NCBI GenBank assembly: GCA_964441265.1
Contig: CAYYKJ010000003.1
Coordinates: 96,579-160,578 of the forward strand
Direction of reading: 5' to 3'
Source: an uncultured archaeon
GTDB taxonomy: Archaea > Aenigmatarchaeota > Aenigmatarchaeia > QMZP01 > QMZT01
DNA length: 64,000 bases
Positions 35,230 to 64,000 of this stretch are shown one piece after another (the first letter of the stretch is position 1; each line of letters opens with the position of its first letter). The notes beneath the pieces were generated by a model. The model saw nothing but the letters and a program-made list of their open reading frames with translations, did no database searches and was not told where the DNA came from. The position numbers and the translations under genes are program-made.

Positions 35230-37713
35230 CTATTCCAAGATCACCGGCCCTGAATTGCCGTATTCATCCAGTTTCTCTTCCAAGTCGGTTATCTTCTTTT
35301 TCACCGGCCCCAGTCCGGATTCGTCGCCTCTGATGTCTTCGAGCTTTTCCCTTATACTTTCTATGTCGGAATCCGGAACTGATTTACCCTTCCGGGACTT
35401 TCCGGGAATCTCGGAGGGGGATTCCTCCTCGAGAAGACTTTTCATATTTTCGATCCTTTCCTTCATGTCCTTTCCGGATTTCATCATCTTCTCATCCATG
35501 AGGTTGTCCAGCTCCATCTTCTCGGTTTTTATCTCCTTGGCCACCCTCTCCAGATCCCTGTTGAGTATCTCGAACCTCTTCTGGTAATCCCTCACCAGCT
35601 CGTTAACGAACCCCTTGACCTTCTCCTTGAATTCGGATATGTCCCTTGCTTTTTCCTTCACCAGAGATTCGGATCTCTCCCTGTCCCTCTTTATCTGCTC
35701 AGAGAGCTTGTTGGAAATCTCCGAAAACTTATCGTTTATGCTGCTCCTTAGCCTTTCCTGGCTGGTTTCCATTTCTTTCATTCTCCTCTCAAACTCACTC
35801 AATTCTGAAACGGAATCCTTGACTCCACCAAGCACGGACCTTCTCTCCCTCCTCACCATTTCCAGTTTCTCATCGATATCATTCTCTATCTCACTTCTCA
35901 TCCTGAACATCTCGTCCCTGCTCTCGTTGACCTTGTTTTCCATCTCCGAGACCGTTTTTCTTAGCTCCTCCGCTATTTCTTCGCTGTCTTTGCCGTGTTT
36001 TTCCTTCCACTTCAGCTCCTCCAGCTCTTCGGAGAGCGCAGAAAAGGAATTCTCCAGGTTCTTCAGCTTTACCTGGATGTCGCTGATCAGGTGCTTGTCG
36101 GTACCCGGACCCTTCAGCTCGACCTTGGAGACCCGGTCCTCCAGCATTTTCATGTCCGTAAGGAGGGTCTTGACCTCCCTCCAAGCCTTCTTACCGGTCT
36201 CGTCATCCTCGCCGAGCCGGGAACCCATGCTCTCCACCCTGGAATCAAGATCCGAAAGCGCATCCTTGATGCTTTTGATTTCCCTGTCCTCCGATTTGAA
36301 TTCCTCCAGGTTTTTTGCGAACTGATCGGTCCTGTTTTCCACCGAATCTATCCTCTTGTCTATCCTCGTCTCGGTGTTCCTTATCTTGGTAATCATCTTG
36401 TCCGTCATCTTCATCATGTCTTCCTTGTTCTTCTTGGTCTTGACCGTGTCGACTCCCTCCCTGACCTTTAAATCCTCTATCTCCTTTTCCAGGGAACCCA
36501 GTGAGTTTCCTATGTCGCTGATCTTCTCGATGCCCCCGACCCCCTTGATTTGCTCCTCCATCTGATAGACCTTCTCGTCGACCCTGCTTCCTATTTTATT
36601 CATGAGTTCATCGATTTTGTTCTTCTTCAGCCACTCCTCATTTTCCTTCCTCATCTCGTCGATGCGAAAGAGGAGGTCCTTGAGTTCCTTCTTCGTCTTG
36701 GCGATTCCGGAGGATTTCTTAATCTTCCTTATCTCCCGGTCCAGCTTATCGATCTCTCTCTGTATCTTGGGGGAGGGCTTCTTTGAATCCCTGACAGAAT
36801 TTTCCAGCTTCGCTATGTGATCGAATATCCTGGACTTGGAATCCTTTACAGCGGAAATGTCTTTGACGAGTTCCCTTACGGAAGTCTCCAGTTTTTTGAT
36901 TCTCTCTCCGTAATCCCCGCCGGCCTTCCGCATCCTTTCGTCTATCTCTTTCTTCAGGCCGGAAAGCTTTTCCGTGGAGGATTTCATCTCACCCATTCTC
37001 TTCTCTGTCTCGCTTCTTATGTCGGAAACGCTCTCCTCCAGGTCAGATTTGAGCTTTTCGTAATCCTCATCCGCCGGCTTTCCCTTGGATTGCATGTCCT
37101 TCATGCGCTTCATATCCTTCTCCATGGACTCGAGCTTTTTTTTGCTGATGATGTGCTTTTCCGCATCCACCAGGCGGGAAGATAGTTCTTTCAGCCTGCC
37201 TTCCATCCTTTCTATCTTCTCCCCCACCTCCGCGTGAAACTTCAGGTCTTCCACGGATTCCGAATCTGACTTCTCGGATTCCTCCAAAGAACTATCCAGC
37301 TTGGCTATATGATCGAATATTTTACTCTTCGCAGATTTCAGATCCTTTATCTCCTTCTGCAGACTCTTGAGCGATTCGCTCATTTTCTCTGTCTTCTCTG
37401 CTTTCCAGCTGTCTTTTTTCTCTTCCTCTTTCCTAATGGATTCAACCGACTTTTCCAGTTCGGAAATCTTCTTCTGTCTCTCCTCCAGTTCCTGTCTATT
37501 GTCCTTTTCTCCCATCAGAGATCCATGCATCTTCTCTATTTCGTTGCCGAGGTCGTCTATCCTGCCGGAGATGTCAGACTTGAACTTCTCAAAATTCTCA
37601 TCGTCCCCGGAACCGACCTTGTCCTCGACAGCCGAAATCCTCTTGTCAGTTTCCTCACGGAGATTCTTGATCTCTTTGGTGAGTTCCTTAAGAACCTGAG
37701 CTATCGGTTTCAT
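35230..37713 (-). CDS. Long coiled-coil protein (~828 aa) ending in GPVILE
   Basis: E/K-rich heptads, no ATPase motifs; internal repeat KS(K/R)IFDHIAKL. Confidence 0.8.
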   Translation of the reverse strand: MKPIAQVLKELTKEIKNLREETDKRISAVEDKVGSGDDENFEKFKSDISGRIDDLGNEIEKMHGSLMGEKDNRQELEERQKKISELEKSVESIRKEEEKKDSWKAEKTEKMSESLKSLQKEIKDLKSAKSKIFDHIAKLDSSLEESEKSDSESVEDLKFHAEVGEKIERMEGRLKELSSRLVDAEKHIISKKKLESMEKDMKRMKDMQSKGKPADEDYEKLKSDLEESVSDIRSETEKRMGEMKSSTEKLSGLKKEIDERMRKAGGDYGERIKKLETSVRELVKDISAVKDSKSRIFDHIAKLENSVRDSKKPSPKIQREIDKLDREIRKIKKSSGIAKTKKELKDLLFRIDEMRKENEEWLKKNKIDELMNKIGSRVDEKVYQMEEQIKGVGGIEKISDIGNSLGSLEKEIEDLKVREGVDTVKTKKNKEDMMKMTDKMITKIRNTETRIDKRIDSVENRTDQFAKNLEEFKSEDREIKSIKDALSDLDSRVESMGSRLGEDDETGKKAWREVKTLLTDMKMLEDRVSKVELKGPGTDKHLISDIQVKLKNLENSFSALSEELEELKWKEKHGKDSEEIAEELRKTVSEMENKVNESRDEMFRMRSEIENDIDEKLEMVRRERRSVLGGVKDSVSELSEFERRMKEMETSQERLRSSINDKFSEISNKLSEQIKRDRERSESLVKEKARDISEFKEKVKGFVNELVRDYQKRFEILNRDLERVAKEIKTEKMELDNLMDEKMMKSGKDMKERIENMKSLLEEESPSEIPGKSRKGKSVPDSDIESIREKLEDIRGDESGLGPVKKKITDLEEKLDEYGNSGPVILE

Positions 37714-38431
37714 CAAAATAACCTATCCTGTTGTTTAGATCCTTCACACTCTTTTCGAGCTTTTCCACATCCTTCTTCATGGACCTCTTGAAATGCTCGA
37801 TATCCGTGAAGGCTTCCTTGAGCAGTCCCTCGGTCTCATGGAGATAGTCCATCCCGGAACCGGAAGATATCTTCTCTAGCTCCTCCAGATCCCTCTCCGC
37901 CTTTTGCCTTACCTCCGTGATCCTTTCTATCTCCCTGTCAAACCTGTCCTTCCTGTCTTTGTTCCACTCCTCTGCACCTTCCCTGAATTCCTCCAGGTCT
38001 TTCACCCTGCCGGTGATATCCTCGATGTCCCTGGCCCGATCTTCGGATCTTTTGTCTATTATTTCCTCATCCTTTCCGATCTCGTGTATCCTTTCCTTTA
38101 TCTGCTCCATTCCTTTTTTCATATCCTCCCTGAGGTTGTCCACTCTTATCGAATGGTCCTCAAGATGGGAAACCCTGGAATCGAGATTACTGACCGATTT
38201 CCTAAGTTCATTTATTCTGTCCTCTGCCTTCGATAAGAATTTTCTTACTCTTTCTTCTACCCTAGAGAACTTGTCTATGTCGAGGCCATCCCTGAATTTT
38301 TTCGTGTCTTCGGCTTCCTCGGAAAGGTATCCGACCGTACTCTCGAGGTCTTTCATCTTCTTCTCTAAAATCTTCTTATTTTCCTTGAAGGACTTTATTC
38401 CCTCCAGAATCTTAACCGCAAGCTCGTTCAT
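37688..38431 (-). CDS. Coiled-coil protein (247 aa)
   Basis: Heptad-rich; ATGA overlap with upstream gene. Confidence 0.78.
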   Translation of the reverse strand: MNELAVKILEGIKSFKENKKILEKKMKDLESTVGYLSEEAEDTKKFRDGLDIDKFSRVEERVRKFLSKAEDRINELRKSVSNLDSRVSHLEDHSIRVDNLREDMKKGMEQIKERIHEIGKDEEIIDKRSEDRARDIEDITGRVKDLEEFREGAEEWNKDRKDRFDREIERITEVRQKAERDLEELEKISSGSGMDYLHETEGLLKEAFTDIEHFKRSMKKDVEKLEKSVKDLNNRIGYFDETDSSGS

Positions 38432-38964
38432 CCGCTTCTCAGCTCCTTCATTATGTCCTTGAGCACCTTCTCGGCTTCCATCTCTTTCTTTTTCTTGGCA
38501 TTCTCTATCTCAGCCCTGGTTTTCTTTTTCTTTTCGGAAATGTCCTTCCTCATTTTCTTTGTCTTCTTCTTGAGGTCTTTCTCTTTCTCCCTCTCCTTAA
38601 CCACCTTCTTTTTCGCTTCCCTCTCCTTCTTCCTTTCTTTATCGAGTCCCTTTTTCAATTTGCTTACTCTGGTTTTGAGTTTTGACCTCTCCTTCTCCTT
38701 TTCGGTGAGCATCTTCCCAATATTTTTCATCTTATTCTTTATATCGGGATATCCATCCATCTCCTTATCCAGCTTGCCTATTTTCTCCCGCAGTTCCTTG
38801 TTTTCATTCACCAAAGAGTCTATTTTTCCAGTTATATTTTTGAGATCTATGAGCATGCCATCCGTTACTTTTTCAAGCCTTTCCACCTTCTCGCCGAATT
38901 CCTTCTTCTCCTCTTTCATCCGGTTTATCCCTTCAAGTATGTTTGCCACGAGTTCCTCTTTCAT
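38428..38964 (-). CDS. Coiled-coil protein with Lys-rich segment (178 aa)
   Basis: TAATG overlap with upstream gene. Confidence 0.75.
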   Translation of the reverse strand: MKEELVANILEGINRMKEEKKEFGEKVERLEKVTDGMLIDLKNITGKIDSLVNENKELREKIGKLDKEMDGYPDIKNKMKNIGKMLTEKEKERSKLKTRVSKLKKGLDKERKKEREAKKKVVKEREKEKDLKKKTKKMRKDISEKKKKTRAEIENAKKKKEMEAEKVLKDIMKELRSG

Positions 38965-40877
38965 TATGCCTCCAACTCATCGAGTATCTTCTTCAATACA
39001 CTCTCGGATTCAAGCCCCTCCTCCTTCTTCGTTTTCCTTATTTTCTCCTCGATGTTGTCCATCTTCATGTTGAGGGCGGTTTCCAGAGACTTGCTCCTCT
39101 CTCCCAGGCTTCTGATGTCCGACTCGATGCCCTTCAATTTTTTCTCCAGGTTTTCCACATCTCCCAGCTTTTCGCCTTCCGCGGACTGCCTCGACCCGAC
39201 CGCATCGAGGTCGGACCTGAGGGTGTTTAGCCCATTTTCAATCCTCTTCAGCTCGCTTATCCAGTGGTCCCTTTCATTCACGAACTTCTGCATCTTGACC
39301 GTGACGTCCTTCTCAAGACTCTCCATCTCGCTCCTCTTCTTCCTCAGCCCTTCGCTTATCCTCTCAGTATGATTGTCCATCTCCATTCTCATGTCGCCTA
39401 TTTCACTCCCCATCTCCCTGTTTTTGGATTTCACCTTCTCCAACTCTGAGTCGGTCCTCTTAGCCAGCTCGTTGACGTAGTCCGACATCTGCCCGACCTT
39501 GTTCAGTATGTTTTCCACCTGGTCCTCGTATTTGTCAAGCCTGTCCTTGACCCTGTATTCCAGCGATCCAAAGCCCTTCTTCATCTCCACGTTGTCCGCC
39601 TTGGCCTCCTCGACCTTTTTGTGGAGTTCCTTCTTCTCATTCATAACCCTCTCGAGTTCCATGTCGACCTTTTCCTTGATCACCCTGGATTCGCTCTCCA
39701 GATTTTTCTTCAGGTTCAGAAGATCGTTCTTCAGGTCGTCGGAGGGCTTCCTCACGTTTTTGATTTCCTCCCTGAGCTTCGCTATTTTCTTGTCGAGTGT
39801 GGACTGGCTGTTGTAAACCTTCTTGAAGGACTCCTTTATGTTGCCGAAGTCCCTGCCAAGCCTGTTGAGACCCTTTCTCAGATCCCGCTCGGCAGACTTG
39901 TCGTCCTTCTTGATTTCCTGTATCTCCAGGGACTGAGCCTCCAGCCTGCTGGAGTTCTTCTCTATCGAAGATGATACATCCCCGGAAAGCTTCTGCCGCA
40001 CACCTTCCAGCTCTTCCTTGAACTTCCCCATGTGTTCATCAAAGGCCTTTTTCGAGGATTCATTTGCCTTCTTGATTTTCTGCATATCCAGTGAATGGTT
40101 CTTCAGACTCTGGGAATTGTTCTTTATAGAAGATAAAACGTCTTCGGAGAGTTTTTGCCTCAAACCATCAAGTTCTTTTTTAAGTCCGGCAAAATCCTTG
40201 CTCAGGTCTCTGTCAGAAGATTTGTCCTCTTTTTTTATCTCCTGTATCTTCTGGGCGTGGGCCTCCAGTTTTTTGGAGTTTTCATAAATGGAGGCGAGTA
40301 CGTCCCCGGAGAGCTTTTGCCCCAGCCCATCCAGCTCGTTTTTCAGCTTGTCGATATCCTTGCTCAGGTCCTTTCCGGACGCATTGTCTCCCTTTTTCAC
40401 TTCCTTTATCCTCACGGACTGGGACTCCAGCCTGCTGGCGTTATCCTGGATTGAAGTGACTACGTCCTTGGAGAGCTTCTCTCTCATGGAGTCCATGTCC
40501 CCCCGGAGCTTGTCCAGACGCTTGCTTAAGGCACTTTCTGAGGATTTTTCCCCCTTCCTTATTTTCTTTATCTCCAGGGACTGGCTCTCCAGTCTCTTTG
40601 CGTTCTCTTCAATAGAAGATAGCATTTCCTTGGAGAGCTTCTGCCTCATGGATTCCAGTTCGGCCTTCAGCTTATCCGAATACTTCTCGGATTCCCTGTC
40701 CTCTTTCTTGATTTTCTGTATCTCCAGTGACTGGTCCTCCAGCTTCTGCGAGTTCCCGTGGATTGAGGAAAGCATGTCCTTGGAGAGCTTCTGGTACCTT
40801 CTTTTCCACTCATCTCTCTCCTTTTTCATCTGCTCTATCTTTTCTCCCAGAACCTGGAACCTGTTCATATCAATCAC
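38964..40877 (-). CDS. Coiled-coil protein with six ~54-aa repeats (637 aa)
   Basis: (Q/E)KLSx(D/E)xxxSIxxNxxxL repeats. Confidence 0.8.
   Translation of the reverse strand: MIDMNRFQVLGEKIEQMKKERDEWKRRYQKLSKDMLSSIHGNSQKLEDQSLEIQKIKKEDRESEKYSDKLKAELESMRQKLSKEMLSSIEENAKRLESQSLEIKKIRKGEKSSESALSKRLDKLRGDMDSMREKLSKDVVTSIQDNASRLESQSVRIKEVKKGDNASGKDLSKDIDKLKNELDGLGQKLSGDVLASIYENSKKLEAHAQKIQEIKKEDKSSDRDLSKDFAGLKKELDGLRQKLSEDVLSSIKNNSQSLKNHSLDMQKIKKANESSKKAFDEHMGKFKEELEGVRQKLSGDVSSSIEKNSSRLEAQSLEIQEIKKDDKSAERDLRKGLNRLGRDFGNIKESFKKVYNSQSTLDKKIAKLREEIKNVRKPSDDLKNDLLNLKKNLESESRVIKEKVDMELERVMNEKKELHKKVEEAKADNVEMKKGFGSLEYRVKDRLDKYEDQVENILNKVGQMSDYVNELAKRTDSELEKVKSKNREMGSEIGDMRMEMDNHTERISEGLRKKRSEMESLEKDVTVKMQKFVNERDHWISELKRIENGLNTLRSDLDAVGSRQSAEGEKLGDVENLEKKLKGIESDIRSLGERSKSLETALNMKMDNIEEKIRKTKKEEGLESESVLKKILDELEA
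39830..40793 (-). repeat. Six degenerate ~162-bp coding repeats
   Basis: QKLSKDMLSSI / QKLSKEMLSSI / EKLSKDVVTSI / QKLSGDVLASI / QKLSEDVLSSI / QKLSGDVSSSI. Confidence 0.85.
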
Positions 40878-43266
40878 TCAGCTTCCTCAGGAGATCTTCC
40901 ATTCCGGACTGCTCCTCCTCCGTCCGGGAGAGCGCCTTCGAAAATTTGTCGAGCTTTGAGTTGAGTTTCTCTATTTTTTTCTCCGCAGAATGCTCTGATT
41001 TTTTAACCCTGAGATCGAATTCCCTGGAGATTTCCCTTGTCGACCTTTCCACCTCTTTCCTCAGGGAATCCGAGAGTTTCTCCATGTCCTCCCCGATTCC
41101 GTCCTTTATCTCCATGAACTTGTCTATCTGATCGTCCAGGAGCTTCATCCTGTCCTCTACCTCGCCCTTGGCGGACCTGACCTCTTCCATCATCTTCTTG
41201 AACCTCTCCTCCTGGGCCCCGCTGGACTTCTTGACCTCCCTTTCTATCAGCTTGGATATGCTCCCAAGGCCTTTCCTCTCCACGTCAAGCTCTGACTTCA
41301 CGGACTCGAATTTTTCCCCGAAGCTGTCAACTGCTTTTTCCAGCTTGTCATCGAAAGCATCACGGAACTTGGCGATCCTGGAATCCACTATTTCCTCCTG
41401 GCTTTCCATCTTCTTGTCCACGGAATCCAGCTTGGAATTGACCCTGTCGTTGATCTCCTCCATCTTTTCTCCAAGCCGGGAAGAAACATTATTAACTATC
41501 TCCTTCTTTATCTTCTCTCCCTTCTCGGAGAACCTCTCTATCTCCTTGCCCATCTCCTTGAGGTTCTCCTCCGCCTGGCCCTTGACCACCAGGAACTCCT
41601 TGACGACCTTGTCTACCTCGCCTCTCCTGGCGCTCTCGGCCTCCTCTATCTTTTTGTCTATGAGGGATGACATCTCTCCGAGGCTGTCCTTCAGTGAGTC
41701 GACCTCATCCCTGAACTCTTTTATCTTCTGGTCCTCTTCCTCCTCTATCTCACCGAATCTGCTGTCTATTTTCTCCTTCATCCCCTCGAAGGCGGCCTGC
41801 ATTCCCTTCTCTCTTTCGGCTTCCTCTCCCTCCATCTTCTTCCGAAAGCCATCGATCTCCTTCTCCGCCCTGGCAATCCTTTCGTCAGCGCTCCCGGAGA
41901 CGCCGTCGAGCTTCTTGTCGACCTCCTTCACTGCGGAGTCCAGCCTTTCCGAAAGGGCGGACCTGATGTTCTCCACGGCCTTCTGGAACCTCTCACTGGA
42001 TTCGGATTCCTTCTTCTCAATTTTCCTGTTGAAATCATCAAGCGTCTTCTTTACGCCGGACTCTATGTCTCCGGTCTTTTTCTCGTTCATCTTGATCCAC
42101 TTTCCGACCTCTTCCAGAACGTCCCTCGTTATGTCCTCCCTGATCTTCTCTCCCTTCTCGGAGAACCTCTCTATCTCCTTGCCCATCTCCTTGAGGTTCT
42201 CCTCCGCCTGGCCCTTGACCACCAGGAACTCCTTGACGACCTTGTCTACCTCCCCCTTCTTCGCGTTTTCGGACTCCTCTATCTTACTGTCCAGTCTCTC
42301 GGAGAGGCCTTCCATGTCCTTCCTGGTGTCTTCGAGTCCCTTCCGGACGTCGCTTACGTTGCTGCTGAAGTTCTCGTACGCCTCCTTCATGGCGGACTTC
42401 ATCTCCTTTTCGAGTTTTTTGTACATGAGTTCCACGTGCCTCTCTTCCTTTTCCGAGTGGCTGTCCATCTCCTTCTTGAAGTTCCCCAGCGCCTTCCCGA
42501 ACTCCTTGCCCATCCCCGCCATCTTCTCCTCGTCTTCCTTGAGTCTCTTCTCGAAATCCCCGGAAATGTTATCCAGCCTCTCGTCGAGACTGGCATGGAG
42601 ATTGGTAATCATCCTGTGTATAAACTTCTCCTTCTTTGTGTCCTTCTTCTCAACGTCGGTCTGTATGAGATTGAGAGTCTTTCCCACGTCGGATTTGATA
42701 TTGCTTATCTCGTCCGCAGAATTCTTCCTCATCTCCTGGATGAATTCCTTCATCTCCTTTATGCTCTCGTCGAGGCCCGCGTGGGTCTCCTTTATTTTCC
42801 GGTTTACCTCATCGGCGTCCTCCTTGCCGGACTCGAGTGAAACTACCCTCTTGAGAAGTTCATCGTCCTGCTCCTGCAGGCTCTTCAGCATGGATTCGAA
42901 CTTGGCCTGGGTCTTCTCGTTCTTGAAGACACCGCTGCGTATTTCACTTATCATGCCCTTGAACTCGTCTATCTTGGCCAGGCCGTCCATCAGCGCCTTC
43001 TGGTGACCCCGTATCTCTGTTATGTTGGAATCAAAATCATCGAGCTTCTTCTTTATGGGCTTTATCTGTGTATCGACGAACTCGGTCAGCTTCTGACCCG
43101 CCTCGCTGTAAGCCCCGGCCGCATCCTTCAGCTTCTCGGCCAGCGCCCGGTTCCTCTCTGAAAGCGTGCCCTTCTCGTTCTTGAGGGACTCTATCATCTC
43201 CTTGTGGTATTCCTTGTCCTTCTTCAGTTTGCCCAGCCTGCTCTGAATCTCTTTCAGCTCCTTCAT
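40870..43266 (-). CDS. Long coiled-coil protein with internal duplication (798 aa)
   Basis: GEVDKVVKEFLVVKGQAEENLKEMGKEIERFSEKGEKI occurs twice. Confidence 0.8.
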   Translation of the reverse strand: MKELKEIQSRLGKLKKDKEYHKEMIESLKNEKGTLSERNRALAEKLKDAAGAYSEAGQKLTEFVDTQIKPIKKKLDDFDSNITEIRGHQKALMDGLAKIDEFKGMISEIRSGVFKNEKTQAKFESMLKSLQEQDDELLKRVVSLESGKEDADEVNRKIKETHAGLDESIKEMKEFIQEMRKNSADEISNIKSDVGKTLNLIQTDVEKKDTKKEKFIHRMITNLHASLDERLDNISGDFEKRLKEDEEKMAGMGKEFGKALGNFKKEMDSHSEKEERHVELMYKKLEKEMKSAMKEAYENFSSNVSDVRKGLEDTRKDMEGLSERLDSKIEESENAKKGEVDKVVKEFLVVKGQAEENLKEMGKEIERFSEKGEKIREDITRDVLEEVGKWIKMNEKKTGDIESGVKKTLDDFNRKIEKKESESSERFQKAVENIRSALSERLDSAVKEVDKKLDGVSGSADERIARAEKEIDGFRKKMEGEEAEREKGMQAAFEGMKEKIDSRFGEIEEEEDQKIKEFRDEVDSLKDSLGEMSSLIDKKIEEAESARRGEVDKVVKEFLVVKGQAEENLKEMGKEIERFSEKGEKIKKEIVNNVSSRLGEKMEEINDRVNSKLDSVDKKMESQEEIVDSRIAKFRDAFDDKLEKAVDSFGEKFESVKSELDVERKGLGSISKLIEREVKKSSGAQEERFKKMMEEVRSAKGEVEDRMKLLDDQIDKFMEIKDGIGEDMEKLSDSLRKEVERSTREISREFDLRVKKSEHSAEKKIEKLNSKLDKFSKALSRTEEEQSGMEDLLRKLSD
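41510..42252. repeat. Perfect 110-bp direct repeat (41510-41619 = 42143-42252)
   Basis: Base-by-base comparison, offset 633 bp (211 codons). Confidence 0.88.
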
Positions 43267-45305: not shown

Positions 45306-45416
45306 GGACACCCCTCTTATTTGCGGACCTTATTATATGAACATACTATATTGACTGTGACTACTTATACTTAATCTAAAGCTAACTGATTTATAAATAT
45401 CCACATTCCGGGGACA

Positions 45417-53097: not shown

Positions 53098-54603
53098 TCA
53101 TCCTTTTTTTGACATTATCTTCTTTGCCTTCTCGTAAGCCCTCTTGGAAATAAGGCCCTTCTTGTAAGCCTTCTCCAGTCCCTTCAGAGAACCGTGTTTT
53201 TTTGCAGCTTCTTCAGGGGCCTTTTCAGAAGGCGCGGCCTTTTTCTCCGGGGATGGCCTGCCAGACCCCGAGGAAAGACTGCTTATCTTCTCGTCAATCT
53301 CCCTGAGCTTGGCCATGTTTATCTTCTTGGTTTTCTCGTATTCCTTCTTGGGTATTACCGCGGACTTATAGCCCTCCTCCAGCGACTTCAGAAGGCTCTC
53401 TATCTCTGATTTCTCGTTCTTCAGCTTCTCCATCTCGGAGCCCCCGCCCTCCGCGGCGGCGGGCGCGGAAACCTTGACCGCCTCCAGGTCCTCCTTGGTG
53501 GCGAAATTCTCGAGCTTCTTGTTCATCTCATCCACGCTGGTGGTGAGGGAATCTACCATGGACTCGTACCTGTCCTGCTTCCTCTTGTAGATGTCGAACT
53601 CCTCCATCTTCCCGGACATGTCCGCGTAGAGGCCGTGTATCTTGTCGGAAAGCTTCTGTATGTTGGTCTGGACGTTCTTCATCTCCATGAGCTTTTCCGT
53701 GCTCTCCTTGCCCATGTTTACCATGTTCTCCAGACTCCCTATGTTGGTTATGACGTTCCTGAGGCGCTTTAGTATCTCGTCTATGCTCTGGAGCTTGCCC
53801 TCTAGCTTGTCTATCTTGATGGACTGGCTGGATATCTCCTTGTCCTTTTTTCCCATCTCGCTGATTATCTTCTCCGGCTCTATCTGGGAGACCACGTCTG
53901 ACATCTTCTGTATCTTGGTTTCGTAATTCTTCATCATGGTCTCTCTCTGGAATATTATTGATCTCAGCTCGGCTATGTTCTCCATGGCCCTCTGCACCTT
54001 TTCGCTGTCCACCTTCCTCATCTCCTTCACGCTCTCAACCGCCGCTTTCATCTTCTCCATGTCTATGTTGAACCTCTCCAGCTTCTTCTTTATCTCGTCC
54101 GCGTCCTTCTCCCCTATCTTGGCGCTCAGGTCGGAAACCACCTCCTTGAACCGGTTGGTCATGTCCGTTTCTATCTTCCCCACGTCGATAGCCGGTTCCT
54201 TCTTCTCCGGCGATCTTTCCGGGGTCCTCGGCACCGGAGCAGGTGCGGCAGAAGCAGCGGATGCCGGGGCCGGTTTATTTCCGGCGGCCGCCGGAGGCGG
54301 CTCGGAGGCGCCCTTCTTGACGTCCTTTATGGCCTTCTTCCTCTCCTCGGCGATCCTCTTTTCCCTCTCCTTCTGGATGGACTTTATCCTCCTGTTTATC
54401 TGATCGAGCTTGGCCGTGTTCTTGTTCTTTATGTCCTTGTAGTCGTCCTCCAGTATGGTGGCCTCATAATAAGCGTCCTCCAGAGAAGAGAGGAGTGTCT
54501 CTATTTCTTCTTTCTCGCGCTTCAGCTCCTCCAGCTCATCCGAGCCCTTCGGAGCTTCCTTTTCTTTCTTCTCCTTTTCCTTCACCCCTTTCTCCCCCGC
54601 CAT
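53098..54603 (-). CDS. Cytoplasmic coiled-coil protein with three SHOCT-like hairpins (501 aa)
   Basis: LEDAYYEATILEDDY / LEEGYKSAVIPKKEY / LEKAYKKGLISKRAY; Pro/Ala linkers. Confidence 0.8.
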   Translation of the reverse strand: MAGEKGVKEKEKKEKEAPKGSDELEELKREKEEIETLLSSLEDAYYEATILEDDYKDIKNKNTAKLDQINRRIKSIQKEREKRIAEERKKAIKDVKKGASEPPPAAAGNKPAPASAASAAPAPVPRTPERSPEKKEPAIDVGKIETDMTNRFKEVVSDLSAKIGEKDADEIKKKLERFNIDMEKMKAAVESVKEMRKVDSEKVQRAMENIAELRSIIFQRETMMKNYETKIQKMSDVVSQIEPEKIISEMGKKDKEISSQSIKIDKLEGKLQSIDEILKRLRNVITNIGSLENMVNMGKESTEKLMEMKNVQTNIQKLSDKIHGLYADMSGKMEEFDIYKRKQDRYESMVDSLTTSVDEMNKKLENFATKEDLEAVKVSAPAAAEGGGSEMEKLKNEKSEIESLLKSLEEGYKSAVIPKKEYEKTKKINMAKLREIDEKISSLSSGSGRPSPEKKAAPSEKAPEEAAKKHGSLKGLEKAYKKGLISKRAYEKAKKIMSKKG

Positions 54604-54655
54604 ATTGATAATTGTTTCCTCGTTTTTTTATATCCCGCCTTTCCGGTCTCCGGAA

Positions 54656-57600: not shown

Positions 57601-60600
57601 GGTTTATGCCATGCATCGGGTATATCGCATCTGCGGTGAGGTCGTATCCCCTCTCCTTGCTGATGTTAGGAGCGGTGAAGTTGATCCTCCAGTAGCCGCC
57701 GTCAGAATAATAATTATAGCTGCTGATGTTCGCATTGACCGAAGAGCTCTCATTCGAAAGGGTAATGTTCCACAGCAGTCCGAAGGTGACGTTGGAACCG
57801 GAATAGGTGACGTCCACATTTGCAGTCAGGTTGTCTCCGGGGGAGACCCGCAGGTAGGGCGATGCCTGGGTGGGCTGCAGGATGTCCACGAATAAAGGAT
57901 GGATGGTCATGGACAGCGAGGTCTCCCTGGTGGTTGGGTCCGCCGTGTCGTTGTAAGTACGCAGGTACCCGCTGTATTCTCTTACTGTATCGAAGGAGGG
58001 CACGGAATAGTTTATTCCTATGTGTTCTGTGTCACCTATTCCAATTGTCATCTGGGTGACGTTGGGGGTTATGAGAGGTGCTATCAGACCGAATTCCAGG
58101 ACCTCCAGAAGTATGATCATGTTGCCCACGTTCTGTATCATGATGTCCCCCAACTCACCCGAGGTTCCCTGGACCACGTCCACTTCAATCTCGTCCGGGG
58201 TCTGGTCCCATGTTAGATTTACCGGTATTTTTACATATATATCAGCCGTATCATAGGTCCCATCGCCCGAAGCGTTCAGCGTCCCGTTGTAGTCCCCGGC
58301 CGGGAACATCTCCGGAACGGTTATGCTCAGGTCGACCGGGCTCGTCCATCCGGAAGGGAGGGATTCTATGGTCGGCGGGCTGAACCACCACGTGAAATTC
58401 TGGCAGACCGTCCCGTTCTGGCAGATGAACTGGATGTTCGAGACATTAGAATTGCCCGCTGACCTTATGCTGAAGCTCTCGTTCTTTGTCAGGCCGGAAG
58501 CAGTTATCATTGTAACATTCTCATCGATTACCTCTATTATCGGGTTCGGGAGCACGCTGAAATTTATGGTGGTCGTGTTGCTTCCCGGCGAACCGTCGAG
58601 GTTGGTCCAGTTGGCTGTCAGGTTCGCGTAGTAAAGGCCCGGAGGTGTCCCGTTGGCTGCGGTTATCTTCACAGTGCCGTTTTTGGTGGCGTTTCTGAGT
58701 ATCGTCCCGAAGGTGAAGTTACCCGGGACGGACATCCATCCGGAGGGTATGCTCACGTTCAGCGTGAGATCGTAGGCCCTCGCGTATCCCGTATTGGAAA
58801 TGTTGAAGGAGACGGAAGAGTTCTCGCCGTTGTATATTGTGATGTTTCCCATGCTGATAGCGCTCTCATTCGGGGTTATCGCTATGGGGGTGTCTCCCTT
58901 TGCGGTGAGATAAAACGGTGAAGTACAGGTGAGGAGAGAAAGCGTGTCATTCGCGCATATCCTCAATTCATAATCCCCCGAAACATTGGTGCTGTAAGTC
59001 GTGTTGAAGAATGACTCGTTTCTGTCCATGTATTTTCTGTATTCTGTCTCTTCCGAGTACAAAACAATGGAATAGTCCAGCCAGGCAGTGTAATTGGCAT
59101 CTGTGGAACCGCCGCTCAGGTTGTAAACGGAAAGGTTTATGGTCTGGTTGCCCGGGAGCGTGAAGTTCGACCCCGCGGAGACAGCATCTACGGTGAAGTT
59201 GGTGGAGTTTTCTATGGACTGATTCTGGGCTATAAGAAGGCCGTTCACGGTGAGGTTGACATACATAGTCGTGTTATCGTTGGAGTTGTGTACGGTGACA
59301 TTGAAGTACCGGAGCGAGCCGCTGTGATTCATGCTCTCGGTGTGATTGAAACCATCATCCGGAACGGAATCATTGTGTATGGTTCTGGATTCGTTCGTGT
59401 AATTGGACAGTGCTATCATGGTCACGTTTATCCATGCCTCATCCACGTCAAAGTTGTCTGTTATGGTGGCGTTGACCGTGACGTTCTCGAATATTATCTC
59501 GAATGTCCGCGGGTGGACGGACGCATCTTTTATGGTGGGGGGAACGTCGGTGACGTTCAGATACATATCGGTCGAGTTCTCCGTCGGGTCCGCCAGGCCG
59601 GTGTCATCCCTTATGAGAAGATTCACGTAATACATGTCATGCACCTTGCTGGGGGATACGTCATATGTGACATTTATCGACCTCTCTGCCTGCTTGTTCA
59701 GGGTGAAGAAGGACGGATTCTCCAGGACCATGTCCGTCCCGTTGCCCTGCTCGTAGATCCTGAATGTGAGGTCGACGTTTCCTATGTTGGTGAGGTTTAC
59801 CAGACCGGCCAGGCCGTCAGTGTTCGGTGGGGTGAGAAGGGTTCCGAAAGTGGAGGGGGAATAGACCCAGGAAGAATTGAGCGAGACATCGAGGTTCATC
59901 ATGGACTGGTCGAAATTCGCGTTCGAGGGGCTCGCCCTGACGTAAGTCCAGTAAATCCCCGGATCCTGCCCGGCGGGGACGTCCACGGTAATGTCAGTAG
60001 TGAAGTTATCCCCCGCCGCCAGATAGTCATAGGAGAAGGGTATCATCTCGACCTCGCATCCGGGGCATTTCGTGGATAGGTTGCCTCCTATGAGCTCCAG
60101 GTCGATGAAGGTCAGCCCGTCGTTCCCCTCGGAGACGACGGTTATGTTACCCACATAGGTTTCACGGTCGTGCGGGACGGTCTCGTTGACGAAGCTTTCC
60201 ACTATGTTCAGAACCGGATTGGATATGACCACAACATCCGTCAAGTTTGTGGTGGAGTTCAGGGTCCTGTCGGGATTCATCCAGGTCCCGTTGCCGTAAA
60301 GCCTGATGAGCCCGGGAGGGGTCTTTGCCTTCACAGTAAGCTCCATCGTCCACGAGCAGTTTTCTCCCGGGCTCATGTTCCCGCAGTAATGATAGCTCTC
60401 GTTGGATACGATGTCGTGAGGGTCCCTGTCATCGTATACCGTGAGGTTGACGTTGTATGCGTATGCCGGACCCAGGTTGGTGAAATTTACGGTGAAATTG
60501 AATACGAATCCCTGGTTCTGCGTGATGTTGGTGGCCTCTATTTCGCCTATCTGGTCGATTTTTCCGTCCACCTTCCCCCAGACGTATATGTACCCGGAGA

Positions 60601-63600
60601 AGGAGGAATTGGTGTTGAATTCCGGTCCTATGTCCTTCGCGTATACTGTTACGTTATAGGTCCCGTCCATCTTCGGAAGGTATTCCGATCTGTACGTATC
60701 GTTACCCTGCGGGGTCAGCGTCAGGTTATCATAGCTCCCGTTCGGGAGTCCTATGTGAGCCCAGACCCCGCCGGAGGGGATTCCGTAATCGTCAGTGACG
60801 TTCGCCGATATGTTCACGTAATCCAGGTATGCTTCTATGCTCTGGTTCGGGAAGATGGAGGAGTTATGGATGTCCGGTGCCACCAGGTCCTTCACCCATA
60901 CCTTTGCATGGTCGCTCGTGGTCCTGGCCGTGTAGAGCTTGCTCATGTCATCGCTTATGTTGCAGGCAAAGGTCACATTGCCCTTGTCGAGCGGGTTCCA
61001 TGTCGCATTCGCGTAACCTGATGAATTGGTCTGGTATGTCCCGTTGTAGACCCACGACCCGCTGGAATCGTTCCAGTAGGAGAAGTTTACTGAATAGTTT
61101 TCCACCGGCCCCTGCGAAACGTAGTCCTCCACGTAGCATATCCTCTCGAAGGTGAACGGATACTGGATTATGCTCTCGTCAGGCGGAGATGTCCAGTAGA
61201 CGTCCGCCCAACCGGTTATCACCACGATCACGGAGTCTTCTCCCGTATCATAGAACGGGCGGGAGGATTCCGCGGTCATGTTCCTGCTTCCCGTCTGCTG
61301 GCCGCTTGAGTCGTAAAGCTCCTCCTCTCCCGCCACGGTCTGGGTAAGGAACGAGGTCTCGTTGTACCATTCCACGTCCTCTATCCCATTCCAGTCGTTC
61401 CCGTTCTCGTCCCACACGTCCGCCTTGAAATGTATGTTGTCCCCCTTACCGTAGTTCGTCCCGTTAGCCGGAATTGTGATGTTTACGATGAGAACACCGT
61501 TCACGTTTATGTTCGTGGTGTTGGTGATGGAATCCTCGTTGGTTGAGGGTTTGGTGGCATTTATGTATATCGTCTGGGATCCAGGGGTTATGGTGTCGTG
61601 GGGATTGTAAACGAAAGGTTCACCGCACCAGCCGCTCGAGTTCGTGGAGCAGTTGCCGAGCCAGACGGTGGAATTGTAGAAATCCACTGTCGCATTCTCC
61701 ACCGGCACCTCCAGCGCGGCGTCCATTATCCTCACCGTTATGTTGGTGGTGTAAGGATCGCACCTTGAGCAGGTGTCGTTCCTGTGTATGGTCGGGTCGG
61801 AGACGGATATCTCCTCGATCACCAGCGGTCTCGTGACAAGAACCCATGTGGTTATGTCAGGGACAGATGCATTGTAATATTCGGACGGGTAATCGTCTAT
61901 CACACAAGTCAGGTTGTGCCAGCCGGGCGGCTTGTTGGTGCTCCAGTAGAACGTGGCGTTCCCGTCCGTGGACGTGTTGACTGTGCCGGTCAGGTTCCCG
62001 TTATGATACAATTCCACCGTGTAATTCTCCAGGTTCACGAGCGTGTTGGCATCCCTTACGTGGCACATCACGTTTATGGTCGGGCCCGCCATGTATGAGC
62101 TCTCGTTCGGGGGAAGTATCATGTCCAGCTCGCTCCACCCGTATATGGTGATGCTGGTGGAATTCGTGTTCTGGTCGTAATATTGCATGGTGGTGTTGGC
62201 GTGGATGGTTTCCGGTCCCATCTCGAAATCATGGGGTATGAACCAGGTTGCGTTGTATCCGCTCGTAAGGTAACTCCAGCTCCCGTCGTACCATGAGACG
62301 TTTGTGTCGTTCACCTCGTTTGAGCAGTTGTCATGGACTGTTGCATTAAGATAGACCGTGGTGTTCCTGTTCAGTATCATGCCGTCCTCCGGGTATATGA
62401 GATTGTCATACAGCTGGCCTATCACCGTGAAGTCGTTCACACTCGTGTTCTCATATTCGTAACAGCTGTCGTTGGTCCCGCCTATCCAGTGCTGAACCCC
62501 CACATATGACGTGCATTCAGGGTCATGATATGCATAGCAGCTCCCGTCCTCCGAAGAGCAGTTGTAAGAGAGCGTGTAATTGGTACCGTTATCTGTCACC
62601 CATATCGCCCCCACGCTCCCGTTGGGGTATCTTCCCCAGTCAGAATCATATATCGTGAAGTTGAGAAGGGCTGTGTTGCTGCCGATCCTTCTCACGGTGG
62701 AATTGCTGTTCCCCGTGTTCACGTTCACCGAATCCTCCGTGAGGTTGAACGTCAGGGGATCCGTCTCGTCGGTATAGTTGAACGGGTCTGTAGCCCTGAA
62801 CTTGTAGTAATTGACCTTCCCCGGGCTCGGCGAAGAATCGGCACAGGTGAATTTCTGGCTGTACTGGTAAACCACGCCCCTGCCGCTTATGCTCGTCCAG
62901 TTTATCAGCTCCCATGTCGCGTTGTTCAGGCTGTGCCAGGTGGTGAGGTTGTTGACGTTGTAGTCGTCGTCCCTGAAGGTCACGGAGAAGGTGTAATCCC
63001 TGCCCCATCCCTCGATAGTCGGCCACACCGACGGATCATAGACCGTCGGGGCCGTACCGAGGTTGAAAGAATTGACCTGCAGTGTGACGTTGTCCCCGTA
63101 GAATTCCTTGGAAACCATCATCGAAAGGTTCCACCACCCCCTCTGCTGGGAGGTGGAGTCCCATGTGCAGTTGTACCATCCCTGGCTCTCGTTCCAGCTC
63201 ATGGTGGTGGGTTCCCCCGGCTTGCAGTATCTGGTGTTTCCCCCCCTCTTCATCTTGTACACCGTCGTGGCATCCTCTATCAGCCCCAGGTCTGCCGAGC
63301 AGTCGTCCTCAAGCCATCCCAGCATGGAGACGGGATCTCCCTGCAGGAATCCCTCTTCTACCGGATAATATATGTTCGGCCTGAGATCGGAATTCACCGT
63401 TACGTTATACTCGGTCGAATTCGTGTCCTTGTAGCAGCTATCATTGAATATCCCTCCCTTCCATTCGTGTATGCCGACCGTGTAATTGCATTCGCCTATG
63501 GGAGTCTCCCCGGGGCTCAGGAAATTCAGGTTTATGTAGCCATTGCTGCCGTTAACTCCGGAATCCTGGCCTATGTCCCAGCTGTAGGGATCGGATGCGT

Positions 63601-64000
63601 TCATGGTGACCCAGAATCTCGCGTTTCCCGTGTCCAGTGTCTGGTTCCTGTCGGAATCGGTGGCTATCAGACTGAGTAGTGTGGAATCGGTCCCGTTCCT
63701 CCATACACCAGGATTGTCATGGCCAGCGTAAGGGGAAAGGGAAACGTCATCCCTTTCGAGTGTGAAATTCTTGTCCGTCACGTTCTCCGTGGAATCGTCA
63801 TAACCCCTGTCGTCGACCGCCTCGAACTTGTACTGCCATGTCCCTATTGCCGGGCAGCCGATGAGGTCGAAATTCGTGGAAAGGACGATGCTCTGGTTGA
63901 TCGGGCCTTCCAGTACGGTGTCGTTCTTCATGGACCATGACGTTTCGCCTGTGCAGTCCTCTATGCATATCCTGTAGAGCCTGACCGTCACGTTGTCCAG
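54656..64000 (-). CDS. Giant surface protein (>3100 aa, 5'-partial) fused via a TM helix to a C-terminal HerA/FtsK-type (DUF87-like) ATPase
   Basis: Frame open to the window edge; Ig-like sequon-rich body, CGDGRC..CPQDC, TM ~55770-55835, Walker A GATGAGKS (55568-55591), FDP, LLVYDEVH, REFRKWG..V..ISQ. Confidence 0.9.
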   Translation of the reverse strand: MDNVTVRLYRICIEDCTGETSWSMKNDTVLEGPINQSIVLSTNFDLIGCPAIGTWQYKFEAVDDRGYDDSTENVTDKNFTLERDDVSLSPYAGHDNPGVWRNGTDSTLLSLIATDSDRNQTLDTGNARFWVTMNASDPYSWDIGQDSGVNGSNGYINLNFLSPGETPIGECNYTVGIHEWKGGIFNDSCYKDTNSTEYNVTVNSDLRPNIYYPVEEGFLQGDPVSMLGWLEDDCSADLGLIEDATTVYKMKRGGNTRYCKPGEPTTMSWNESQGWYNCTWDSTSQQRGWWNLSMMVSKEFYGDNVTLQVNSFNLGTAPTVYDPSVWPTIEGWGRDYTFSVTFRDDDYNVNNLTTWHSLNNATWELINWTSISGRGVVYQYSQKFTCADSSPSPGKVNYYKFRATDPFNYTDETDPLTFNLTEDSVNVNTGNSNSTVRRIGSNTALLNFTIYDSDWGRYPNGSVGAIWVTDNGTNYTLSYNCSSEDGSCYAYHDPECTSYVGVQHWIGGTNDSCYEYENTSVNDFTVIGQLYDNLIYPEDGMILNRNTTVYLNATVHDNCSNEVNDTNVSWYDGSWSYLTSGYNATWFIPHDFEMGPETIHANTTMQYYDQNTNSTSITIYGWSELDMILPPNESSYMAGPTINVMCHVRDANTLVNLENYTVELYHNGNLTGTVNTSTDGNATFYWSTNKPPGWHNLTCVIDDYPSEYYNASVPDITTWVLVTRPLVIEEISVSDPTIHRNDTCSRCDPYTTNITVRIMDAALEVPVENATVDFYNSTVWLGNCSTNSSGWCGEPFVYNPHDTITPGSQTIYINATKPSTNEDSITNTTNINVNGVLIVNITIPANGTNYGKGDNIHFKADVWDENGNDWNGIEDVEWYNETSFLTQTVAGEEELYDSSGQQTGSRNMTAESSRPFYDTGEDSVIVVITGWADVYWTSPPDESIIQYPFTFERICYVEDYVSQGPVENYSVNFSYWNDSSGSWVYNGTYQTNSSGYANATWNPLDKGNVTFACNISDDMSKLYTARTTSDHAKVWVKDLVAPDIHNSSIFPNQSIEAYLDYVNISANVTDDYGIPSGGVWAHIGLPNGSYDNLTLTPQGNDTYRSEYLPKMDGTYNVTVYAKDIGPEFNTNSSFSGYIYVWGKVDGKIDQIGEIEATNITQNQGFVFNFTVNFTNLGPAYAYNVNLTVYDDRDPHDIVSNESYHYCGNMSPGENCSWTMELTVKAKTPPGLIRLYGNGTWMNPDRTLNSTTNLTDVVVISNPVLNIVESFVNETVPHDRETYVGNITVVSEGNDGLTFIDLELIGGNLSTKCPGCEVEMIPFSYDYLAAGDNFTTDITVDVPAGQDPGIYWTYVRASPSNANFDQSMMNLDVSLNSSWVYSPSTFGTLLTPPNTDGLAGLVNLTNIGNVDLTFRIYEQGNGTDMVLENPSFFTLNKQAERSINVTYDVSPSKVHDMYYVNLLIRDDTGLADPTENSTDMYLNVTDVPPTIKDASVHPRTFEIIFENVTVNATITDNFDVDEAWINVTMIALSNYTNESRTIHNDSVPDDGFNHTESMNHSGSLRYFNVTVHNSNDNTTMYVNLTVNGLLIAQNQSIENSTNFTVDAVSAGSNFTLPGNQTINLSVYNLSGGSTDANYTAWLDYSIVLYSEETEYRKYMDRNESFFNTTYSTNVSGDYELRICANDTLSLLTCTSPFYLTAKGDTPIAITPNESAISMGNITIYNGENSSVSFNISNTGYARAYDLTLNVSIPSGWMSVPGNFTFGTILRNATKNGTVKITAANGTPPGLYYANLTANWTNLDGSPGSNTTTINFSVLPNPIIEVIDENVTMITASGLTKNESFSIRSAGNSNVSNIQFICQNGTVCQNFTWWFSPPTIESLPSGWTSPVDLSITVPEMFPAGDYNGTLNASGDGTYDTADIYVKIPVNLTWDQTPDEIEVDVVQGTSGELGDIMIQNVGNMIILLEVLEFGLIAPLITPNVTQMTIGIGDTEHIGINYSVPSFDTVREYSGYLRTYNDTADPTTRETSLSMTIHPLFVDILQPTQASPYLRVSPGDNLTANVDVTYSGSNVTFGLLWNITLSNESSSVNANISSYNYYSDGGYWRINFTAPNISKERGYDLTADAIYPMHGINLADTEEKAVIYIDETPPDVVIDMDDRVPVNDTARIRANVTDPGGAENASVTITTPSNHSTSANMTFILKTDDLYVFGFNYTNTSESGMYMVNVTACDKSGNCNSSNKTFEIYPAVILAGESIDIAPVTDDVVDMNFLLYGDLETGPLFFNISTNSTDGTYNETIDARYYDIRMNVWNETIYLLDSALFSDMYNPILFGNLPTQYLGPGALRGFAVNNKFNYSMGKMVLDYSAYPDTSVTTLGIYNCKIDWSVNDSIQLLNVCNDTWNRTDASEILINTTDSTLTYNTTDLDGVYILAQFICGDGRCDTDYGESNANCPQDCPTGPGEEEEEEGGGEGAAPGAGAGAGAGAGAAIAPPTGAGARVPVDIDSTLIFVTLKPGEHEIHSIDITNNLGQDMEVTSSVTGNVWELVQIEKPVFTVEGKSTHVVKVKLYTLPTTQEGIYTGDIVMKVKDRNITHVTPVTIKIEKPEEPLLDVNVKTLTKSVEPGGNLKFEVTLLNMGPTATVEDIVVNYEVRGLENDVLIVRNKETLAVESVKSFTKKIFIPEDAPQDRYVVEVNVSYWYGKKSAYAVDSFDILMVPAPVRLLRMVFMSWITYAVAFLAIPAIYLGRRFWIMYKLKKKKKTKYVFPLDMKKLPQKGTHTIPIGKIAETDVTAYFDTRALMMHSLAAGATGAGKSVSAMVIAEELLKRKIPIIVFDPTAQWTGFIKRCQDKRMFELYPKFGIKPDDARNFKTNILLVTDPKMEVDIQKYRKPGEITVFVMNKMEPTEIDKFVRKTVSSVFKASLPEEKEIKLLLVYDEVHRLLPKYGGKGGYVALERACREFRKWGIGVFMISQVLMDFRGAIRANIATEIQLRTKYEGDIGRVKKKYGTDYASKVVKMTTGTALMQNPAYNEGKPYFVSLRPLLHDTGRLTDKEIKNYVEVNEDVEKIEKMIEGMKAKNVDTTDIELEFNLARDKMKAGQFDMAKSYIESLKNRLNM

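Follow-up and report, generated by a model that had tools for sequence, protein, structure and literature searches.

In a stretch of 64,000 nucleotides from an uncultured archaeon of the Aenigmatarchaeota (GenBank assembly GCA_964441265.1, contig CAYYKJ010000003.1, positions 96,579 to 160,578 of the forward strand; this whole stretch is called "the window" below), we have analysed a gene cluster at positions 35230-64000, where 11 co-oriented open reading frames follow one another on the minus strand with nearly no spacing: the 3' part of a giant surface-protein gene (giantA) that ends in an ATPase, a coiled-coil adaptor (cc501), a second surface protein (giantB), an orphan protein (p222), a MinD-type ATPase and six coiled-coil proteins. 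We consider it moderately probable that this locus is the Aenigmatarchaeota form of the SPEARE system of DPANN archaea, together with a conserved cytoplasmic linkage module. The SPEARE protein type is already described (in Nanohaloarchaeota in 2019, re-read in 2023), and matches from Aenigmarchaeota are already published; the partner genes, the length of giantA of at least 10.6k residues and the motif that the adaptor shares with giantB were not found in the literature that we have searched.

The first-pass annotation of this DNA had proposed an undescribed envelope-spanning machine of ten co-oriented genes over about 29 kb. The location, the strand and the genes listed are as it described them, with 11 frames instead of ten; the term "undescribed" is not supported, since the key protein has the SPEARE architecture that is set out in the available portions of two published accounts (PMC6642349, PMC10266531). 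The affiliation with DPANN archaea agrees with the relatives of the source genome, which carry Candidatus Aenigmatarchaeota labels.

SPEARE proteins are the most conspicuous candidates for host-interaction genes in DPANN archaea, and their working is disputed: they have been regarded as a protease or nuclease, as a secretion straw and as an adhesin. The locus supplies testable partners, i.e. a regularly occurring adaptor, a second surface protein that is addressed by a motif and, in Aenigmatarchaeota, MinD with a coiled-coil operon; this partner set argues against the classical type IV secretion reading in the source genome (1.36 Mb in 18 contigs, 89.8% complete).

The giant protein and its membrane-anchored ATPase

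The frame of giantA (54656..64000+, minus strand) leaves the window, and on contig C3 of the source genome it amounts to 4403 residues up to the contig end. In the relative G012, the ortholog is a single stop-free open frame of 14,526 residues: the C3 frame aligns to its residues 10082-14524 with 48% identity, and a 6196-residue frame that leaves the end of contig C2, with a signal peptide of its own, can be aligned with the N-terminal part of the ortholog. Ahead of the C2 frame lie seven genes that are collinear with those preceding the giant gene in G012. Because of this collinearity we infer that giantA has been split by an assembly break between C2 and C3 and that it would comprise at least 10.6k residues, far more than the >3100 residues given by the first-pass annotation, which had correctly recognised the HerA/FtsK-type ATPase. 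Just upstream of the giantA start (C2:158290-160864), there are two frames, one for a 397-residue protein with an N-terminal winged-helix-like segment and then a sequon-rich part, the other for a 464-residue membrane protein, and in G012 both are in frame with the giant gene; they may represent a membrane-tethered regulator, a fusion or fission event, or frameshifts.

Stop-free frames of 13,200-14,526 residues occur in several genomes of about 1 Mb [G012:C3 (L063-L065), G166, G035, G156, G117, G030 and G061]. In the portions available to us, the largest protein of cultivated archaea is quoted as 9,409 residues (PMC10266531) and halomucin as about 9,000 residues (PMC6642349); frames of 10,000-14,500 residues in genomes of about 1 Mb exceed these quoted archaeal records.

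The part of the giantA ectodomain that lies in the window comprises about 2700 residues with Ig-like, filamin-like and NEW3 matches in Pfam, and it is strongly enriched in N-x-S/T sequons (170 observed, 46.8 expected, a ratio of 3.6), of which there are none in the cytoplasmic parts of giantA and giantB; a Pfam scan of a further 7485 residues of the N-terminal giantA pieces returned no family. A single hydrophobic helix (residues 2719-2740 of the window part), followed by the lysine run KLKKKKK, separates the ectodomain from the ATPase domain (residues 2745-3114, nucleotides 54659-55768), which is 370 residues long and ends in a helical tail. The Walker A motif (GxxGxGKS) is located at residue 2804, and the Walker A, Walker B and other invariant motifs are intact, as judged from the columns of the family alignment. 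The domain exceeds the Pfam cut-offs of DUF87 (41.6 bits, cut-off 23.2), with a match that covers only the first 62 of 220 model positions, and, just barely, of HerA_C (22.1 bits, cut-off 22); its closest solved relatives are HerA structures (E 1.4e-5 with the single sequence, E 3.1e-10 for 4d2i with the family profile). Stand-alone, canonical DUF87/HerA-like genes are located elsewhere in the genome, at C3:18741-20786 and C6:55693-56307 (110 and 118 bits). The ectodomain diverges fast among the relatives, whereas the ATPase stays 60-87% identical, a pattern that is expected of a partner-recognition surface.

The source genome also encodes two paralogs of giantA, of 5177 residues on contig C5 and of 2943 residues on C3; the three giant genes together take up 56 kb, or 4.1% of the genome. 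At C5:57877-80447, the giant gene is accompanied by an adaptor gene, by a 424-residue tail-anchored protein that bears the adaptor's motif and has a zinc-ribbon-like end, and by a MinD-like gene of divergent orientation, behind which a 799-residue charged protein is encoded; at C3:1-16868, the giant gene and its adaptor are flanked by two large surface-protein genes. The precomputed Pfam families of the C5 paralog are subtilase and RCC1, and those of the C3 paralog PQQ-type propellers; in this, the two paralogs agree with the accessory domain types of published SPEARE proteins.

With a limit of E <= 1e-3, the ATPase family has 1033 representatives, of which 356 are left at E <= 1e-30. Nearly all members within the stricter limit belong to proteins of 450-7665 residues, in which the ATPase forms the C-terminus or lies close to it, and a hydrophobic helix is found at most 140 residues upstream of Walker A in 148 of the 177 members that have a strict Walker A; their public names do not go beyond "DUF87 domain-containing", "ATP-binding" or similar. 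The family occurs in 113 of 251 sampled genomes of the phylum of the window (frames up to 14,236 and 14,526 residues), in 28 of 42 genomes of a Nanohalarchaeota-labelled phylum (frames up to 12,145 residues) and in 36 of 201 genomes of a Nanoarchaeota-labelled phylum, these phylum names being taken from single record titles of metagenome-assembled genomes in the collection groups.

Comparison with SPEARE proteins

The two nanohaloarchaeal giants of 9,409 and 8,880 residues begin with a signal peptide and propellers, continue with about 75 Ig-like domains and a membrane helix, and end in a cytosolic VirB4/TraG-like ATPase with a terminal coiled coil (PMC10266531, section 11); the same account identifies them with what Hamm et al. 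2019 had named SPEARE proteins (PMC6642349). In the latter account, as far as it was available, the intracellular part is the most conserved one, and SPEARE-like intracellular sequences are listed from Woesearchaeota, Aenigmarchaeota, Micrarchaeota and Altiarchaeales; production of the protein is reported, with its extracellular and cytoplasmic parts found in different size fractions. The ATPase was called type III restriction-like in 2019 and VirB4/TraG-like in 2023.

By this published description, giantA resembles the SPEARE proteins in being a giant, mostly extracellular protein with adhesion repeats, a single membrane helix near the C-terminus, a cytoplasmic P-loop ATPase and a helical or coiled-coil end, and the genomes are alike in having several copies that take up about 4% of the sequence. 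Great length with adhesion domains, the near-C-terminal helix and the intracellular P-loop ATPase are all present in giantA itself. Homology to the named SPEARE proteins is suggested indirectly: by a DUF87 family member from the Nanohaloarchaeota QJJ-7 genome, which is 52% identical over 99% of the ATPase, by the presence of the family in the 28 of 42 genomes of the Nanohalarchaeota-labelled phylum, and by the Aenigmarchaeota matches of Hamm et al. 2019. Members of the ATPase family carry precomputed matches to PF04851 (ResIII), PF02534 and PF10412, and other members of the family carry the laminin-G families PF13385 or PF02210.

The differences concern both the protein and its surroundings. 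The frames of the relatives reach 14,526 residues, against the published 8,553 and 9,409 residues; in the published loci, the gene next downstream encodes another VirB4/TraG ATPase, whereas here a coiled-coil adaptor is followed by a surface protein with a matching motif; and the linkage with MinD, p222 and coiled-coil genes is not mentioned in the portions of the SPEARE accounts that were available.

The adaptor and the motif shared with the second surface protein

The adaptor cc501 (53098..54603, minus strand; 501 residues) has a strong heptad periodicity, with hydrophobic residues recurring every 3.5 positions (z = 9.4 relative to shuffled sequences). An alignment of 30 adaptor sequences has revealed a common build: an N-terminal motif of about 50 residues, a Pro/Ala-rich linker, a helical core, and then the motif again, in many sequences twice. 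The core is conserved over residues 165-395, approximately, and its residue R214 is invariant in the alignment. In the Atlas, the nearest clusters to the core are unnamed proteins of Aenigmatarchaeota (0.89) and Nanobdellota (0.88).

The position of the adaptor, directly downstream of the ATPase gene, is widely kept. Within the order, it is found in all 11 relatives compared, which represent three families, and the other families of the class show it in each of 19 regions. Of the best public loci with 2 kb or more of downstream sequence, at least 70 of 73 have it, as do all ten loci of the Nanohalarchaeota-labelled phylum, two of five loci with a Woesearchaeota or Nanoarchaeota label, and the two paralogous loci in the source genome. 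Fusion of the two proteins was also looked for: 110 of 251 family members extend more than 100 residues past the ATPase, and none of these extensions matches the adaptor or the motif profile. In a Woesearchaeota-labelled subfamily of proteins of about 1300 residues (P0203-P0256, locus L138), the 300-400 residues past the ATPase consist of three helical repeats (precomputed PF19027), which are unrelated to both the adaptor and its motif. A complex prediction for the ATPase (residues 20-370) with the adaptor (residues 150-501) scored 0.00 against a mark of 0.32, control pairs not having been folded.

We have built a profile hidden Markov model from motif copies 1 and 2 of the adaptors and searched it against all open reading frames of at least 60 residues in the source genome. 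It matches cc501 three times, the last 49 residues of giantB (E 1.8e-5) and the adaptor of the C5 locus; the remaining matches are the 424-residue tail-anchored protein that adjoins the C5 adaptor and one weak match in a frame on contig C4. In 31 fetched regions from relatives, the motif is confined to adaptor homologs, to the extreme C-termini of giantB-type proteins, and to two short tail-anchored proteins that occur where giantB is missing. The motif, which has two helices and is specific to this system as far as these searches go, is best named SHOCT-like, since it does not reach the Pfam cut-offs for SHOCT.

The second surface protein, giantB (47181..53096, minus strand; 1971 residues), starts one base after the end of the adaptor gene. 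It has an N-terminal signal or anchor, a sequon-rich ectodomain (105 observed, 30.1 expected, a ratio of 3.5), a NEW3/CARDB-like domain, and a membrane helix at residues 1868-1886, followed by a cytoplasmic tail of 85 residues, at the end of which the SHOCT-like motif is located. The first-pass annotation had called it a paralogous transmembrane surface protein; its size and topology are as proposed, while the relationship to giantA is limited to 27% identity over about 360 residues (E ~5e-23). The tail motif is present in all giantB homologs compared, i.e. 11 of 11 at the level of the order and 13 of 13 full-length ones at the level of the class. Among public loci with at least 9 kb of downstream sequence, 34 of 48 have giantB within 10 kb downstream, and in the Nanohalarchaeota-labelled phylum a giantB-like gene is located downstream in five of the ten loci; the tail motif is present in four of these genes, and the fifth gene is truncated where its contig ends. 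In six relatives from several families (G071, G094, G111, G118, G151 and G061), the adaptor and giantB are separated by a poorly charged frame of about 150-170 residues, probably a membrane protein, and one of these frames weakly matches Peptidase_M50B (E 2.4e-4); the window lacks such a gene.

MinD, p222 and the coiled-coil operon

The gene downstream of giantB encodes p222 (46297..46965, minus strand), a 222-residue protein that the first-pass annotation had listed as unknown; it matches no Pfam or NCBIfam family and has no solved relative below E 0.6. Its leads in the Atlas score at most 0.85, the nearest named clusters being winged-helix-like (0.79-0.80), and its relatives form 60 clusters, all at least 40% identical, in which the named ones come from Aenigmarchaeota only. 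The MinD-type ATPase follows (45417..46247, minus strand): its assignment is upheld by the archaeal MinD model TIGR01969 (233.7 bits, cut-off 201.75) and by Pfam ParA/CbiA matches, and its C-terminal stretch reads like an amphipathic helix. Three further MinD-like genes are found in the source genome.

The remaining six genes form an operon of coupled coiled-coil proteins, as had been proposed, with overlaps of 1-29 bases at all five junctions and heptad z values from 9.6 to 20.6; over the adaptor and these six proteins the range is 9.4 to 20.6, against -0.2 for MinD and 1.3 for p222. The operon is led by cc682 (43263..45311; z = 20.6), whose stop is overlapped by four bases by the start of cc798 (40870..43266; z = 12.8); then come cc637 (38964..40877; z = 18.6; overlapping cc798 by eight bases), the small, highly charged and helical cc178 (38428..38964; z = 10.7; overlapping cc637 by one base), cc247 (37688..38431; z = 9.6; overlapping cc178 by four bases) and, last, cc828 (35230..37716; z = 20.1), all on the minus strand and all heptad-rich. 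By eye, cc637 has internal repeats of about 46 residues; only one short array of tandem DNA repeats was found in the operon.

The comparison with the fetched relatives at the level of the order (three families) has shown that the order giantA-adaptor-giantB-p222-MinD-cc682-cc798 is kept in 11 of 11, the last four genes forming a block after giantB. Throughout the order p222 adjoins MinD, the pair being inverted as a unit in two of the 11. The other coiled-coil genes are more restricted: among these relatives, cc637 has a BLAST homolog only in G002, a genome of the same genus, which also has a homolog of cc247 and the only full-length homolog of cc828, the match of the latter in G012 covering just 75 residues (E 7e-7). 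At the level of the class, 14 of 19 regions have a MinD homolog at a distance of up to 20 kb, in several cases with long, highly charged frames after it.

Downstream of giantB in G071 (locus L051, 9033-16660), uncharacterised genes for proteins of about 320, 170-220, 250 and 800 residues form a set that recurs elsewhere and in which Pfam recognises only a carboxypeptidase-regulatory-like domain, in the 800-residue protein. Similar sets occur in G061, G094, G111, G166, G103, G488, G489 and G487, i.e. in other families and in the other phylum; in the class of the window, a 259-residue MinD follows the set.

For co-occurrence, we have used the source genome and 40 relatives, with orthologous ATPases defined by at least 59% identity. 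Among these 41 genomes, the orthologous ATPase is found in 19, p222 in 25 and giantB in 24; all 19 ATPase-bearing genomes also have p222 and giantB, while 16 genomes lack all three, including genomes that are 96% (G024), 95% and 90% complete, in 7, 20 and 10 contigs, respectively. The six genomes that have p222 or giantB but no ATPase show them mostly on short or broken contigs, with a complete giantB in G016; in these, the giant gene may have remained unassembled. Since the ATPase, p222 and giantB are present or missing together, the set behaves as one accessory unit, so that the synteny and co-occurrence expected by the first-pass annotation are borne out.

Comparison with other known systems

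HerA/FtsK/VirB4 enzymes are generally known as translocases, and an alternative reading of the locus is a conduit similar to a type IV secretion or Ced system, where the anchored ATPase would export effectors, or import host DNA or protein, through a "straw" made of the giant protein. In the available portions of the two accounts, a straw has been proposed for the nanohaloarchaeal giants (PMC10266531), and transport through an ectodomain pore, as well as DNA uptake, for the SPEARE proteins of Hamm 2019 (PMC6642349). CedD, which likewise combines a membrane helix with a HerA-like ATPase (PMC11868833, in part), is the best NCBIfam match of the giantA ATPase, and the coupling protein IcmO/DotL is a weak profile match. 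The CedD match reaches, however, only 35.8 bits against a cut-off of 600, and the type IV secretion ATPase models TraC, TraD and TraB reach 15-18 bits, where the cut-offs are 366-800. In the source genome (89.8% complete), searches for PF03135 (the VirB4 N-domain) and PF04610 (TrbL/VirB6) were negative; as there are only about 60 residues from the membrane helix to Walker A, the ATPase has no room for a VirB4-like N-domain or for a HerA barrel. In each of the 11 cluster proteins, at most two hydrophobic segments were flagged, which leaves the cluster with no evident polytopic channel protein (no search was aimed at CedA), and six single helices would make a poor channel. The straw is weakened because no channel or type IV secretion part has been found, and we hold a conduit to be unlikely.

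The relationship to the known members of the HerA clade can be summarised on the same grounds. CedB and CedD share with giantA a membrane helix that is followed by a HerA-clade ATPase, and they form homo-oligomers (PMC11868833, in part); here, there is no VirB4-like N-domain, the locus has no genes for a CedA/CedE channel protein or for pilins, and a giant ectodomain takes their place. HerA of the HerA-NurA system shares the Walker motifs, the DUF87/HerA_C matches and the closest solved structures, but the ATPase of giantA is anchored in the membrane, lacks the space for an N-terminal barrel and has a coiled-coil neighbour instead of NurA; the curated HerA models give 23-29 bits against cut-offs of 800-970. 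The locus is, thus, a member of none of these three systems (type IV secretion, Ced, HerA-NurA), in agreement with the first-pass annotation.

Long coiled-coil proteins (CCPs) of DPANN archaea, Aenigmarchaeota included, are located beside type IV pilus-like loci and have been proposed to act in host interaction (preprint 10.1101/2023.02.24.529834, in the portions available). We have compared them by gene placement: CCPs adjoin CpaF/TadC genes, whereas there is no T2SSE-type ATPase in the window, and the nearest one is about 27 kb from the giantA start, on another contig. The coiled-coil proteins of the cluster are not placed like CCPs, because the type IV pilus-type ATPase genes are distant or on other contigs.

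Among the PADLOC defence models, which have no cut-offs, mad8 (54.2 bits) and HerA (46 bits) match the ATPase, and the other cluster proteins match SMC-like coiled-coil models only, with no defence partner genes seen. A defence system (anti-phage HerA or MADS) is not favoured, the matches being of a general kind, to the fold of the ATPase and to coiled coils. A cell-division locus was rejected, the set being missing from near-complete relatives.

Proposed arrangement of the complex and alternatives

HerA/FtsK-family enzymes assemble as rings. In the SPEARE-type reading that we favour, a ring of ATPase domains would hold a number of giant ectodomains together, so that these form a glycosylated fibre or patch at the surface of the cell. 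The core of the adaptor would dock on this ring or on its conserved helical tail, and the repeated motifs of the adaptor would capture the tails of giantB; by such a capture, we propose, the two adhesins would form one complex. Membrane-bound MinD, with p222, could place the complex, and the long coiled-coil proteins could form a cytoplasmic scaffold beneath it. By analogy with what has been proposed for SPEARE proteins, the complex might serve host-cell contact, where ATP hydrolysis would remodel or load it, or move a substrate. MinD and the coiled-coil operon may belong to one positioned and scaffolded organelle, as the first-pass annotation had suggested; their linkage is strong in this phylum.

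Several points weigh against this arrangement. Ring formation and all of the binding steps are inferred from sequence, and host contact is argued by analogy only, because the literature covered has no cultured host pair of Aenigmatarchaeota. At least one laminin-G domain is present in all SPEARE ectodomains according to the available portion of PMC6642349, whereas this giantA has none, either at E <= 0.01 in its 3114 window residues or at E <= 0.001 in the further 7485. The first-pass annotation had called the adaptor SHOCT-like: the coiled-coil adaptor itself stands, but the Pfam SHOCT_2 match at residues 473-500 is weak and below the cut-off (13.4 bits against 24, E 0.088), and the Pfam SHOCT families do not match the giantB tail; for SHOCT, no known function is reported, and the one published test of its oligomerisation or self-association was negative (PMC3581485, in part). 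MinD was found within 20 kb in none of the ten regions from the Nanohalarchaeota-labelled phylum, where the adaptor is kept. As the triad of giantA, adaptor and giantB has no such linkage in the other phylum, and p222 is found only under Aenigmarchaeota labels, the sequence comparisons allow that p222, MinD and the long coiled-coil genes may be a lineage-specific neighbourhood rather than machine parts. Lastly, the relatives are not independent samples, so the values given above are counts only.

An alternative assumes two modules, in which the SPEARE triad would serve the surface, while MinD, p222 and the coiled-coil genes would be an unrelated division or cytoskeleton operon. Besides the missing linkage in the other phylum and the restricted lineage of p222, the p222-MinD pair is inverted or displaced in two families, and the three further MinD-like genes of the genome also favour this separation. 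On the other side, the linkage outlasts rearrangement across families (11 of 11 and 14 of 19), a giant ATPase gene occurs a second time, independently, beside a MinD-like gene and the 799-residue charged protein in the C5 locus, and 16 of the 41 genomes, G024 among them, lack the set as a whole; an essential role in division is unlikely, since the set is missing from near-complete genomes. We regard two unrelated modules as unlikely.

A more far-reaching version of the favoured SPEARE-type reading comes from the attachment organelle of Nanobdellales, for which cryo-tomography has described a layered cytoplasmic cone, an envelope portal and an outward filament (PMC11420986; preprint 10.64898/2026.06.04.730037; both in part). 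By analogy, the cluster could encode the components of such an attachment organelle in DPANN archaea: the HerA-like ring with its helices as the portal, the bundled ectodomain as the filament, the six coiled-coil proteins as the cone, MinD with p222 setting a single position, and the SHOCT-like motif acting as an address tag by which further surface proteins dock on the adaptor. The resemblance is one of principle only, in that such a structure could be made from a ring ATPase, a giant fibre and a scaffold of coiled coils; the organelle belongs to another phylum, and the published descriptions, in the portions available, name no components. We hold this equation to be improbable.

Finally, a cell coat or glycocalyx, where the giant glycoproteins would form the envelope and the ATPase would serve their own insertion or turnover, would suit the very high sequon excess, the huge size, the share of about 4.1% of the genome that the three giant genes take up and the sequon-rich surface proteins encoded by neighbouring genes, but it is highly improbable, given that the genes are not found in many related genomes, that the ectodomain diverges fast beside a conserved ATPase, and that a Sec signal peptide should be enough for export.

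Neighbouring genes in the window

The last gene of the cluster, cc828, is convergent with three surface-protein genes on the plus strand (29338-35227), which encode an RCC1-repeat protein of 1237 residues (sequon ratio 3.0) and two membrane-anchored surface proteins of 265 and 476 residues. Homologs of all three are located downstream of MinD in one other family (G094), and homologs of two of the three in a second family (G061), where the fetched region ends. As read from its sequence, the 476-residue protein has a layout similar to that of giantB: a Pro-rich linker, a NEW3-like domain, a helical segment and a membrane helix.

There are no tRNA genes in the window. Farther from the cluster, a homolog of the 20-kDa subunit of NADH-quinone oxidoreductase (6036-8192, minus strand) is split by an intein with a LAGLIDADG homing endonuclease.

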